From the sequence record NC_024125.2: a stretch of DNA of 64,000 nucleotides; one strand, written 5' to 3'. The DNA is from Escherichia phage vB_EcoM_112. Positions within the stretch are counted from its first letter, which is position 1. Every line of letters begins with the position of its first letter. Made by a program: the position numbers and the translations under genes. Under the pieces are notes generated by a model. The model was not told the DNA's origin and did no database searches. It was given only the letters and a program-made list of their open reading frames with translations. Shown in pieces: positions 6,000 to 49,489 of the stretch.

Positions 6000-6214
6000 T
6001 GGAAGGTTTAATTGAAGCTATTAAATCAAACGACCTCGTAGCCGCTCGTAAATTATTTGCTGAAGCCATGGCTGCAAGAACGATTGATTTAATTAAAGAA
6101 GAAAAAATCGCTATCGCTCGTAATTTCTTAATCGAAGGTGAAGAACCTGAAGACGAGGATGATGACGAAGACGAAGACTCTGATGAAGATGACGAAGACG
6201 AGGATGATGAATAA
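5999..6214 (+). CDS. 67: Prohead core protein gp67 (acidic C-terminal tail)
   Basis: 71-aa ORF, start overlaps gp20 stop (TAATG); poly-Asp/Glu tail; position between 20 and 68 as in T4. Confidence 0.85.
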
Positions 6215-24646: not shown

Positions 24647-24694
24647 CAGGGATTGTCAATTCGCAGAGTAAAATATTAGGAGCAATATAACAAC

Positions 24695-24725
24695 GGGGAC
24701 CTTTCGGTCCCCATATTTTTATTTG
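24695..24725 (+). terminator. Rho-independent terminator after gene 54
   Basis: GGGGACC-UUUC-GGUCCCC hairpin followed by AUAUUUUUAUUU. Confidence 0.6.
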
Positions 24726-25009
24726 CGGAATGAAATGAAAGCAGAAACTGAAGCAACTAAACTGTCTTCAATATAAACTTCAATTTTTACCGGAGCTTCT
24801 GACTCAAATTTACCTGTTACTACACCCTGAAAAATACTTTCAGTCTGTTCTGGCTTTGAAAAATTTTCAGAAGGAAAAATTCCAAACTTTTTATCTGTTC
24901 CGAAAATTTTGATAAATTCATCATAAACTGCTTCATTAAAAGCATTATCAGCAGGAATAACGCCTTCAACTACAAGTTCTTGACCTAAAAAGCGTAAAGA
25001 AGATTTCAT
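24719..25009 (-). CDS. Hypothetical protein (T4 alt.-3 position)
   Basis: 96-aa ORF with ATG start and GAGGA SD, last ORF of the minus-strand block. Confidence 0.65.
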   Translation of the reverse strand: MKSSLRFLGQELVVEGVIPADNAFNEAVYDEFIKIFGTDKKFGIFPSENFSKPEQTESIFQGVVTGKFESEAPVKIEVYIEDSLVASVSAFISFRK

Positions 25010-25016
25010 TTTGTGT

Positions 25017-25070
25017 TCCTCATGTTATGTCAGTAAGACTACTATAACACAACACGAGGGACTTGTAAAC
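25017..25070 (-). promoter_or_regulatory. Early (sigma70-type) promoter plus leader, copy A of an exact 54-bp repeat
   Basis: Minus strand GTTTACA-N17-TATAGT then leader ending in GAGGA SD; identical to 38610..38663. Confidence 0.6.
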
Positions 25071-25245
25071 TACATTTTGAACTTTTTAGTACGCGTAATA
25101 GGCATGCGTCGATTTTATACTGTTTCATTGTTTGAAGAGCAGTATCAAAAACAGCATTAATGACACCAATTGGATTTCCACCCAAGTTTTTAAGCTTAAC
25201 TAATGATAGTTTCTCATTAACACCTATCATTACGATATGCATCAT
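25042..25245 (-). CDS. Alt N-terminal-domain paralog fragment (distal piece; T4 alt.-2-like)
   Basis: 67-aa ORF resembling Alt residues ~64-130 (MMHIV...QTM.QYKIDAC.LR.LKS). Confidence 0.55.
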   Translation of the reverse strand: MMHIVMIGVNEKLSLVKLKNLGGNPIGVINAVFDTALQTMKQYKIDACLLRVLKSSKCSLQVPRVVL

Positions 25246-25427
25246 TTTATCGCCCGGCTTAACGTTTTATTCGTATCACCGCCAGAGGTGTATGTACAAA
25301 ATCTAAATCCAGGAAGCACGCTTTCTTCGCCGGCTTGAATAGCAAAAATTTGTGGTATTTTATGCTTAGGATTTAAGTTAACAACCGGCGCCGAAGCGCC
25401 GTCAAATAATTCTGTAATAAGTTCCAT
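25242..25427 (-). CDS. Alt N-terminal-domain paralog fragment (proximal piece; T4 alt.-1-like)
   Basis: 61-aa ORF MELITELFD...NLNPK.KIPQIF...PGFR.CTYTSGGDTN resembling Alt residues 2-56; out of frame with the next piece. Confidence 0.55.
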   Translation of the reverse strand: MELITELFDGASAPVVNLNPKHKIPQIFAIQAGEESVLPGFRFCTYTSGGDTNKTLSRAIK

Positions 25428-32254: not shown

Positions 32255-32284
32255 ATACTATCACAAAGGAACCGTACTGTAAAC
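32255..32284 (-). promoter_or_regulatory. Putative early (sigma70-type) promoter upstream of the 30.7-like ORF
   Basis: Minus strand GTTTAC-N18-TAGTAT. Confidence 0.4.
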
Positions 32285-35317: not shown

Positions 35318-35347
35318 ATAATATCACAACTCTACCGTAAAGTAAAC
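35318..35347 (-). promoter_or_regulatory. Putative early (sigma70-type) promoter upstream of the cd.2-like ORF
   Basis: Minus strand GTTTAC-N18-TATTAT. Confidence 0.4.
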
Positions 35348-37758: not shown

Positions 37759-38108
37759 TTAGAAAGGTCCTGGATGTCTTCTGCGAACTTGTTGAAGGAG
37801 TTGTTGATTTGTTTTTCAACCAATCCTGGCTTATGAGCCACCACATCCGCCTTCTTTGCGGCTTTGCGCAGTGTTTCATTTTCACGCTCAATAGCAGCAA
37901 TTGCCTCACGATTTTTATTATTCATCGCATCAATATAATTATACTGAATTCGCAAATTATTTAATGCTAAAGCGTTTTCATTGGCTGTTTTTGTAATTTC
38001 AGTAACTGATGTTTCTAATCTTTCTACCTTATTTTTTAAAATAATAGATGTTCCGCCAAATGCTATTACAAGTAATAGCAATCCAGCTGTAAAATTACTT
38101 ACATGCAT
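37755..38108 (-). CDS. Inner-membrane spanin (i-spanin, Rz equivalent; T4 PseT.3-like)
   Basis: 117-aa ORF with N-terminal transmembrane segment (TAGLLLLVIAFGGTSIIL) and coiled-coil periplasmic region. Confidence 0.7.
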   Translation of the reverse strand: MHVSNFTAGLLLLVIAFGGTSIILKNKVERLETSVTEITKTANENALALNNLRIQYNYIDAMNNKNREAIAAIERENETLRKAAKKADVVAHKPGLVEKQINNSFNKFAEDIQDLSK

Positions 38109-38605
38109 AAAGTTTTAATAACCTCTATAATATCGTCTTGAGAAAGACCGTTAATTAAAATATGATGTTCAGCTGGAGATTTAGAAATTTTAAAGCATGC
38201 CTCAACATCTTCTGCCATATCCGATGCACTACGATTTGGATTACTAATCCCAAGGCGGTGTTTTCCCGTCAAAGGATTAACAATAATGTAGCATTTACAA
38301 CTATTGATATGAACATTAGGCTGAGTCTGATTAATGAACACTTCACAATCATACTTAGCGAGTTGATTTTCTAAAAAGACTTTCATCTCTTCAACCGCAT
38401 CAGGAAGCATATCACGGGCTTGCTCAAGACGACGATTTCGATATTCTTTAATGGTCGTTTTCCGCTTGACTTGCTTAGCTAAATCTTTCTTAAGATCAGT
38501 GATATATCCAACTCGACGATTTCCTTTGAATACCGAAATCCCATCTGTAGTATCACCGTATGCTTCAACGACCATTTCAGTAGTAATAAGCTGCAAATCC
38601 ATCAT
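38099..38605 (-). CDS. alc: Alc, inhibitor of host transcription elongation
   Basis: 168-aa ORF matching T4 Alc in size and position. Confidence 0.85.
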   Translation of the reverse strand: MMDLQLITTEMVVEAYGDTTDGISVFKGNRRVGYITDLKKDLAKQVKRKTTIKEYRNRRLEQARDMLPDAVEEMKVFLENQLAKYDCEVFINQTQPNVHINSCKCYIIVNPLTGKHRLGISNPNRSASDMAEDVEACFKISKSPAEHHILINGLSQDDIIEVIKTLCM

Positions 38606-38609
38606 AAAG

Positions 38610-38663
38610 TCCTCATGTTATGTCAGTAAGACTACTATAACACAACACGAGGGACTTGTAAAC
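38610..38663 (-). promoter_or_regulatory. Early (sigma70-type) promoter plus leader, copy B of the exact 54-bp repeat
   Basis: Identical to 25017..25070; ends 4 nt upstream of the alc ATG. Confidence 0.6.
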
Positions 38664-38666
38664 AGC

Positions 38667-40254
<1,588 letters not shown>

Positions 40255-40920: not shown

Positions 40921-41730
40921 CTAGTCGTTGAACCTTGCTTTGCAATTGTCGCCGTGCCATCGTTTATATGTTGATGGTGATAAATCTTTCTTATCACAAT
41001 ATGGACAATTCAATTGAATTCTATTTGGATTTAATTTACATCTGTCATTATGTTTTAGATAAAATCCAGGACCTTTACCAATGTGACCGCAGAAATCACA
41101 TGTGATTTCTTTTTGTGCAGGATGGGTCCCGTTCTTAACCATTTCTAATGTTTTTGCTGATGTTCTTTTCTTATGGTCTTCTGACAAGAAATGATGTGAA
41201 CCGTCATTTACCCGTTTTGATTGAGTTTCTGACTGCATTTTACCACCGCAAAATACATGAGTACCTTCTTTTATAGCTGCAATATTGCGTTCTTTAACTT
41301 TTGCAATATGCTCAGCTTGTTGAAAATTATGTATACCTAATGCAACTCTATTTAAATTAGATTTACGCTGTATTTCACCATCTAAAAGATGAAATGTACC
41401 ATTTTCTATCTTAGATTTAATAGAGGCAATATTTTTAGCTCGTACTTCAGGGATATTAAAAATCTGGATTTCTCTAGATTTTGCGGCTTTAGAAGCTAAT
41501 TCAGAAATTTCTTCAGGAGAATATTTCATTCTAAGCTTTATAGCATGACAAGCCTGGTAATCTTTTTGAGCTAAATGTATATCATAATGTTCCTGTATAG
41601 AAAGGCACATCAAATTATCTAAATCATTATTTTCACGGTTACCGTCTTTATGATGGATTTCGTATGTTCTTCCATCAGAATCTTTAGGTATAGGTCCGTT
41701 AGCATCTATCCAAATTTTTCTATAGTTCAA
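40921..41730 (-). CDS. Intron-encoded HNH homing endonuclease (I-TevIII-like, full length)
   Basis: 269-aa ORF; HNH motif EIHHKDGNRENNDLDNLMCLSIQEHYDIH, C-terminal Cys clusters; apparent TTG start 7 nt after AAGAGGA. Confidence 0.8.
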   Translation of the reverse strand: MNYRKIWIDANGPIPKDSDGRTYEIHHKDGNRENNDLDNLMCLSIQEHYDIHLAQKDYQACHAIKLRMKYSPEEISELASKAAKSREIQIFNIPEVRAKNIASIKSKIENGTFHLLDGEIQRKSNLNRVALGIHNFQQAEHIAKVKERNIAAIKEGTHVFCGGKMQSETQSKRVNDGSHHFLSEDHKKRTSAKTLEMVKNGTHPAQKEITCDFCGHIGKGPGFYLKHNDRCKLNPNRIQLNCPYCDKKDLSPSTYKRWHGDNCKARFND

Positions 41731-49402: not shown

Positions 49403-49489
49403 ATTATTTTCCTCTTTAATCATCAGCAGTATTGCCGATAGTTGTATAGTACCATGGAAGGACAAGGATGTAAACAGTTTTGTGAAAAA

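Follow-up and report, generated by a model that had tools for sequence, protein, structure and literature searches.

Within the 64,000-nt window of Escherichia phage vB_EcoM_112 (NC_024125.2) analysed here, the same 54-bp sequence stands in front of two distant genes, alt.-3 and alc, which raises the question of what this sequence does and why its two copies are alike. The initial annotation described it as an early promoter with its leader, repeated exactly, and put forward a recent duplication or gene conversion as the cause.

A 54-bp repeat fills the spacers in front of alt.-3 and alc

Read on the minus strand, the copy at alt.-3 (copy A) and the copy at alc (copy B) both give GTTTACAAGTCCCTCGTGTTGTGTTATAGTAGTCTTACTGACATAACATGAGGA (Table 1), and are identical at 54/54 positions with 0 mismatches, just as first described. 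With up to three mismatches allowed, a search of the window gave no match beyond these 2, and 100 shuffles gave 0. Comparison of the window with itself revealed that the pair is its longest exact repeat and the only one above 21 nt; the next-longest exact repeats (21, 19 and 19 nt) come from the paralogy of alt with alt.-1/alt.-2. Together with a promoter scan, this comparison also upheld the view that the identity of the pair exceeds that among the other early promoters in the window. The two copies are in direct orientation and separated by 13,593 bp, and their identity is lost at once on both sides: copy A lies between ..aaaatgta and acacaaaATG, and copy B between ..ctaagct and ctttatgATG.

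The window belongs to a Tequatrovirus (T4-like phage), and its alt.-3 locus is 99.9% identical to that of phage vB_EcoM_G8; about 500 phage records matched each of the two loci. As in T4, the genes between the copies are alt.-2/-1, alt, DNA ligase (gene 30), 30.1-30.9, rIII, gene 31 (GroES-like/Cpn10-like), cd, pseT and alc. The gene alt.-3 is non-essential and of unknown function, and C-terminal extension mutants of it escape the CmdTAC defence system (PMC11618068). The gene alc opens with ATGATG in the window (38600-38605) and with ATAATG in phage ZCEC15 (L009); because the first ATG is ATA in the latter, the conserved start of alc is probably the second ATG (38600-38602), which gives an SD-ATG spacing of 8 nt, as at alt.-3. 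Bounded by the upstream stop codon on one side and by the SD/ATG on the other, the repeat is essentially the whole intergenic spacer, and in other phages with a full-length alt.-2 the TAG stop of that gene ends on G1 of the cassette.

Table 1. Positions of the two cassette copies, their promoter and hairpin elements, and the neighbouring genes. Positions refer to the window.
Feature	Position	Strand	Remarks
Copy A of the 54-bp cassette	25017..25070	-	Upstream of alt.-3; cassette position p = 25071-p
Copy B of the 54-bp cassette	38610..38663	-	Between rnlA (gene 63) and alc; cassette position p = 38664-p
Copy A -35 TTTACA	25064..25069	-	A preceding G completes the T4 early motif GTTTAC
Copy A extended -10 TGT+TATAGT	25041..25049	-	Promoter scan
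Copy B -35 TTTACA	38657..38662	-	Promoter scan
Copy B extended -10 TGT+TATAGT	38634..38642	-	Promoter scan
Copy A hairpin	25018..25059	-	SD GAGG 25018-25021; predicted start near A37 (25034)
Copy B hairpin	38611..38652	-	Same fold; SD GAGG 38611-38614; predicted start near 38627
alt.-3	24719..25009	-	96 aa, DUF5498; copy A in front; ATG 8 nt past GAGG
alc	38099..38605	-	PF17527, host-transcription inhibitor; copy B in front
rnlA (gene 63, RNA ligase 1)	38667..39827	-	Upstream at copy B; TAA stop 3 nt before the cassette
alt.-1 and alt.-2	25042..25427	-	Upstream of copy A; what is left of a second alt paralog

The neighbourhood of copy A has its own history. Here alt.-1/alt.-2 are the leftover of a full-length second alt paralog (RB32-type alt.-2, 2058 nt), which lost 1,690 bp internally between two 9-bp CTAAAAAGT direct repeats, a deletion that used this microhomology and not the cassette. 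Its 3' junction lies 11 nt upstream of copy A, and the truncated alt.-2 ORF runs into the copy, with its TAG stop (25042-25044) inside the -10. On the other side of alt.-3, a G+C-rich hairpin at 24693-24714, called terminator-like on both strands, sits between the convergent alt.-3 and gene 54 and is likely a bidirectional terminator. Two further sequence features were seen elsewhere in the window: a perfect 18-nt palindrome, AGAAATCACATGTGATTT, at 41091-41108, and overlapping GAA/GAT/GAC-rich repeats (acidic codons) at 6139-6210, inside a presumed coding region.

Both copies occur widely in Tequatrovirus

The T4 reference genome also carries both copies, matching the 54-mer at 54/54 positions at alc and 53/54 at alt.-3, and the cassette was present at each locus in 20/20 genomes from which both loci were fetched. 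A megablast search located the 54-mer at 738 places in 447 phage records; counts of places per record undercount second copies (e.g. in G8), because an SNP at position 27 interrupts every exact word of 28 nt, and they were not taken as evidence of absence. In IMG/VR, the first 23 nt matched only 7 loci, too few for a survey, which was therefore made on GenBank phage records. Since T4 and most sequenced Tequatroviruses have the pair, the recent duplication proposed at first does not hold for this genome. In addition, the haplotype found at both loci in the window is the commonest allele at each of them, and the exact identity seen here thus needs no special event. As judged from these sequences, both copies occur across the genus Tequatrovirus, T4 included, and the repeat is an old feature of T4-like phages.

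The cassette contains a sigma70-type early promoter

The top promoter-like match in each of the two regions consists of TTTACA, a 17-nt spacer and TATAGT (cassette positions 25-30) with TG before the -10, amounting to 10/12 consensus matches; the promoter scan thereby recovered, at both copies, the sigma70-type -35/-10 pair with 17-nt spacing that had been reported. The -10 departs at one base from the TAYWAT of the PST/T4 early-promoter consensus in the PeSL papers, TTTACW-N17-TAYWAT (PMC2839356; PMC4122927), and natural G29A variants give TATAAT. AT-rich tracts precede the -35, gaaaaattataaaaaattta in copy B and ctaaaaagttcaaaatgta in copy A, which lie outside the repeat and within coding DNA. 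The cassette ends at its 3' side in the SD GAGGA (GAGG at positions 50-53), and the leader does reach the SD of alt.-3 and of alc, as the initial annotation stated. By its sequence, the cassette is a strong sigma70-type T4 early promoter of the form GTTTACA-17-TGnTATAGT. It resembles the T4 early promoters (Hinton 2010, PMC2988021) in the GTTTAC -35, the 17-nt spacer, the TGn plus -10 hexamer, the UP-type AT-rich upstream DNA and the early genes downstream; however, typical T4 early promoters share the consensus alone, whereas this pair shares all 54 nt, including the spacer, leader and SD.

Dual RNA-seq and proteomics of T4 placed alt.-3 and alc among the genes with early RNA and early protein (PMC9697503, supplementary files 4 and 6). 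Upstream of them, alt.-1 and alt.-2 have middle RNA and no protein, alt is late, and rnlA has early RNA but late protein (PMC9697503). A dedicated early promoter fits early genes that stand right behind middle and late genes, and the same arrangement means that read-through RNA exists on which a hairpin could act. No mapped transcription start at either site was found in the literature searched, and a literature search with the exact cassette sequence returned no match.

The promoter is nested in a predicted hairpin that pairs the SD

RNA folding showed that cassette positions 12-53 form an 18-bp hairpin in the predicted structure, with a free energy of -22 kcal/mol and a z-score of -5.39 (0/200 shuffles as good). 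Its lower stem comprises 14 bp (pairs 12-53 to 25-40), among them 3 G.U pairs, and is followed by an AU bulge (26-27) and a 4-bp upper stem (pairs 28-39 to 31-36) capped by a GUCU loop. The 5' arm is made up of the promoter spacer and the -10, and the 3' arm of the leader and the SD, with CCUC (12-15) pairing to the SD GAGG (50-53). The part of the identity that exceeds promoter needs is thus the 3' arm of the predicted hairpin and no idle leader. In read-through contexts of 131-136 nt the hairpin is kept in both the MFE and the centroid structures, and 4/4 SD nucleotides are paired. The sense RNA folds at -22.0 kcal/mol and the antisense RNA at -12.8 kcal/mol, the latter weaker because of the three G.U pairs, and this asymmetry points to a constraint on the mRNA strand; outside Tequatrovirus, the fold has no such strand asymmetry.

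The position of the promoter within the hairpin suggests how the SD might be gated. Judged from the -10 geometry, transcription from the cassette would begin about 7 nt after the -10, near position 37 in the 3' half, and yield an mRNA that has no 5' arm and whose SD would be open. RNA reading through from rnlA (early RNA, late protein), alt (late) or alt.-1/-2 (middle) would hold the whole hairpin, and its SD would be sequestered. By calculation, opening the SD in read-through RNA takes 11.6 kcal/mol at alt.-3 and 7.0 kcal/mol at alc, compared with 2.0 (alt.-3) and 1.7 (alc) kcal/mol in the own-promoter RNA. From the fold models and the promoter sequence we infer that the cassette gates the SD, such that alt.-3 and alc would be translated essentially from their own early transcript alone.

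An Rfam search found no family for the cassette; the lone match was a miRNA precursor by chance (E 0.78, 16.8 bits against a gathering score of 135). Cleavage by RegB, whose motif is GGAG, was set aside, as the T4-type SD GAGGA has no GGAG.

Further early-promoter candidates on the minus strand of the window have -35 starts at 35346 (before cd.2), 32283 (before 30.8), 31891 (before 30.7), 48741 and 49474. Those at 35346, 31891 and 48741 have a stem-loop over the -10 (z -2.4 to -4.8) that does not touch the SD. The candidate at 32283 also has a stem-loop over the -10, and its spacer CCUUUGUG pairs in addition with the SD CAAAGGAG; that at 49474 folds weakly (z -1.36). These candidates suggest that a stem-loop combined with an early promoter is a general architecture.

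Natural variants spare the hairpin

Natural variation was analysed in 25 genomes or contigs comprising 17 haplotypes, with 22 alc copies, 23 alt.-3 copies and 20 genomes that contribute both; PD112 contributes an alt.-3 copy alone. The most variable sites are in the loop (32-34) and the bulge (27). Among the remaining variants, G16A, G40A and A41G swap wobble and Watson-Crick pairs and C11T adds a pair; only G18A, G29A and G40T cost one. The SD stays paired in 17/17 haplotypes, and ddG averages +0.40 over the 12 observed variants but +1.85 over the 162 single mutants (p = 0.006). The modelled hairpin therefore appears to be spared by natural variants, which points to selection on the fold.

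With the bulge variant T27C, the -10 reads TACAGT instead of TATAGT and the hairpin becomes slightly more stable (-23.3 kcal/mol). C27 was found in 7/22 alc copies (e.g. G8 L005, Shfl2 L017 and RB18 L018) and in 0/23 alt.-3 copies, and it is possible that T27C represents a locus-specific tuning of promoter strength.

Spacer-SD complementarity recurs at alc in other genera

In five other Tevenvirinae genera, the rnlA-alc spacer measures 59-64 nt, with (G)TTTAC at or overlapping the stop codon. Different sequences again pair the spacer with the SD of alc in 4/5 of these genera (Gelderlandvirus, Jiaodavirus, Dhakavirus and Kanagawavirus; z -2.9 to -4.5): UCUCCGUUU with AAACGGAGA in STP4-a, AUCCUCAUCAG with CUGAUGAGGAU in KP182, UCUCCUCAU with AUGAGGAGA in KIT01, and a 15-bp stem in CIP9. 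At Mosigvirus alc no SD pairing was found; the hairpin there is within the spacer and the SD is free. RNAalifold applied to a MAFFT alignment of the six genera returned a meaningless 5-pair structure with the helices out of register. Folds of the single sequences differ in register as well, with i+j = 65 in T4 and 61-62 in CIP9, so that counting covariation pair by pair was dropped; the evidence thus consists in the repeated upkeep of spacer-SD complementarity, not in compensatory change at homologous pairs. On these folds, an SD-sequestering hairpin with a nested early promoter would be conserved at alc in 5/6 genera.

The alt.-3 locus of Dhakavirus KIT01 differs from its alc locus. Its cassette begins at the TAG stop, TAGTTTAC, and is no copy of the KIT01 alc cassette; it resembles the alc and alt.-3 cassettes of Mosigvirus, with 49-50/64 aligned columns and a common spacer palindrome (loci compared: L030/L032 of KIT01, L029 of O157tp6 and L033 of PhAPEC2). 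Since the two KIT01 loci are unlike, near-identity of both loci is a state at the level of Tequatrovirus. The comparison hints that cassette types were swapped between the two loci in the course of Tevenvirinae evolution, on the basis of few sequences that also share the early-promoter consensus.

A different role for the stem-loop would be that of a transcriptional insulator, a terminator or attenuator that isolates alt.-3 and alc, with the SD pairing incidental. One PeSL stem-loop of RB49 cut lacZ expression to terminator level, and its authors read all such stem-loops in this way (PMC2839356); the cassettes at 35346, 31891 and 48741, whose stem-loops leave the SD untouched, and the Mosigvirus alc hairpin confined to the spacer speak for the same role. 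However, at neither locus is the stem followed by a U-run, and neither hairpin was called in the terminator scan, for which reasons an intrinsic terminator was dropped as a reading, and what is conserved at alc in 5/6 genera is complementarity to the SD, achieved by different sequences. We consider it rather unlikely that insulation is the main role, and the two roles are not mutually exclusive.

The two copies appear to draw on one pool of alleles

Polymorphism within Tequatrovirus bears on how the copies have stayed alike. Across the 20 genomes with both loci, there are 0 fixed differences between the alc and alt.-3 copies, and 6/7 sites polymorphic at alc are polymorphic at alt.-3 too, with the same base (hypergeometric p 5e-5; p = 7e-4 if 31 sites alone are free). 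The haplotypes T11+A16, A32+T34, A29+A32, A33 and A32 are found at alc or at alt.-3 in different genomes, and the cross-locus distance of 2.24 is about that between genomes at the same locus (1.79 and 2.36). Genomes whose two copies are identical are enriched (5/20, permutation p 0.008), and on average the distance within genomes does not fall significantly below that across genomes (p 0.15). Homologous recombination between co-infecting phages cannot shift an allele from one locus to the other, which leaves ectopic conversion or recurrent mutation. The six shared sites with the same base suggest exchange between the loci, and in this sample of sequences the two copies appear to draw on one allele pool; the sample of 20 genomes is small, partly picked for SNPs and phylogenetically non-independent. 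This agrees with the gene conversion that had been offered as a possible cause of the identity.

It is also conceivable that there is no exchange, the likeness following from near-total constraint on each position and the shared polymorphisms from recurrent mutation at the few free sites. Variation does gather in the loop and bulge, and sites 32-34 show all four gametes within 3 nt, which at unconstrained loop sites such as 32 and 34 means that recurrent mutation explains part of the sharing. C27, private to alc in the sample, indicates that any exchange is too infrequent to homogenise the loci, and the non-significant reduction of the within-genome distance is in line with this alternative. 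Moreover, the 54-mer has about the same nucleotide diversity (0.028 at alc and 0.041 at alt.-3) as the coding DNA beside it (0.024-0.038), and thus shows no hyper-conservation from genome to genome. On the other hand, the hairpin arms of other genera differ in sequence and yet stay complementary, so that constraint alone cannot fix this particular sequence, and the two Dhakavirus loci bear clearly different cassettes. The coincidence of 6/7 sites, the enrichment of identical within-genome pairs, and the presence at both loci of A29+A32 and of T11+A16, a two-site haplotype in the spacer, all run counter to independent mutation. Constraint without exchange is accordingly unlikely in our judgement.

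With exchange as the preferred reading, the ancestor of Tequatrovirus would have come to bear the same cassette at both loci, and their likeness would since have been maintained by constraints that overlap (on the promoter, on the two hairpin arms and on the SD) in addition to occasional ectopic gene conversion across the 54-bp homology. The pattern is similar to concerted evolution of short dispersed repeats in its shared polymorphisms, its lack of fixed differences and a cross-locus divergence no greater than the allelic one; it differs in that the tract is 54 bp only and that exchange is deduced from 20 genomes. The length of the tract is close to the minimum homology for T4 recombination of <50 bp quoted in PMC2839356 (citing Singer et al. 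1982).

Relation to PeSL cassettes and to T4 inhibitory hairpins

A PeSL unit consists of an upstream stop codon, an AT-rich tract, -35 and -10 elements, a stem-loop with G.T pairs that can take five positions, one of them over the -10, an SD and an ATG (PMC2839356, PMC4122927). Compared to the PeSL cassettes (Arbiol et al. 2010, PMC2839356; Comeau et al. 2014, PMC4122927), the 54-bp cassette likewise has a sigma70-like early promoter, is repeated in the genome and carries a stable stem-loop with G.T/G.U pairs overlapping the -10, as in one of the five positional subclasses of phi1/RB49; recombination via short homology was also proposed by the PeSL authors. There are differences in the stem-loop, which those authors put just upstream of the promoter in PST/T4 phages, as a terminator, whereas the present stem extends from the spacer over the -10 and the predicted start to the SD and has no U-tail. 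In addition, with copies 13.6 kb apart that flank essential genes, the pair is no shuffling module, unlike PeSLs. The published text of the PeSL papers makes no mention of the alc/alt.-3 pair, of SD sequestration or of gene conversion.

The nested arrangement resembles the hairpins of T4 e, soc, 49 and I-TevI (reviewed by Uzan and Miller 2010, PMC3014915). There, too, the SD is part of a helix, and an internal promoter is overlapped by the 5' strand of that helix or follows it. Long transcripts of these genes are translationally silent, and transcripts from the internal promoter, without the 5' strand, are translated (PMC3014915). Their nested promoters are late and delay translation, whereas the cassette promoter is of the sigma70 early type and, by analogy, would confine translation to its own period of activity. 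On its predicted fold the cassette would work like this family, but it falls outside the described late-gene set. The cassette is thus a member of the known T4-type early promoter/PeSL class, to which it would add an early promoter nested in an SD-sequestering hairpin and two copies that form a single allele pool.

Could the repeat instead act as DNA, as a cruciform or recombination site for a dedicated recombinase or as a transposing promoter cassette? Inverse PCR revealed mini-circles of PeSLs in RB49 and phi1, with speculation about a helper protein (PMC2839356), and the alc cassette of one genus is related in type to the alt.-3 cassette of another. Yet the three G.U pairs would be mismatches in DNA, with the opposite strand folding at -12.8 against -22.0, only two copies occur in 64 kb, with neither target-site duplications nor an associated recombinase gene, and the homology stops exactly at the coding sequences. 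Such an element is highly improbable. An event private to this genome, whether a recent duplication or a very recent conversion, could be argued from the 54/54 identity of the copies here but is scarcely credible with the pair at the same loci in T4 and in 20/20 other genomes fetched for both, 738 places in 447 records, and the commonest allele at both loci.

As to the consequences of the repeat, the initial annotation predicted that recombination between the copies would delete or invert the intervening DNA. Deletion is indeed possible, but inversion is excluded by the direct orientation of the copies: between direct repeats, recombination could delete the 13.6 kb and release it as a circle, or duplicate it. 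Genes 30 and 31 are essential in T4, and the deletion, which removes DNA ligase (gene 30) and gene 31, should be inviable. A duplication of 13.6 kb exceeds the terminal redundancy of T4. With the one product expected to be inviable and the other oversized, the persistence of the pair is unsurprising.

Significance of the cassette pair

Altogether, the repeat probably represents two copies of a compact PeSL-type cassette, in which an early promoter, a stem-loop and an SD are combined to gate the SD of early genes, and which occasionally exchange sequence. More tentatively, the Tevenvirinae might employ a wider "promoter-gated translation", at alc in at least 5 genera and at alt.-3, that keeps delayed-early, middle and late read-through RNA silent, with the Tequatrovirus pair, 54 bp long and 13.6 kb apart, serving as a natural reporter of ectopic conversion.

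For annotation, the repeat is to be treated as a regulatory cassette, present in the T4 reference genome too, and not as a recent rearrangement or a misassembly. The pair offers a simple natural system in which to measure short-homology ectopic conversion in a highly recombinogenic phage, and would add to the PeSL picture a case of cassettes exchanged across loci without movement of genes. If SD gating is true, the textbook T4 mechanism of a promoter within an inhibitory hairpin would reach early genes, and it would account for Alc and Alt.-3 being early proteins although transcripts from upstream cover their genes later.
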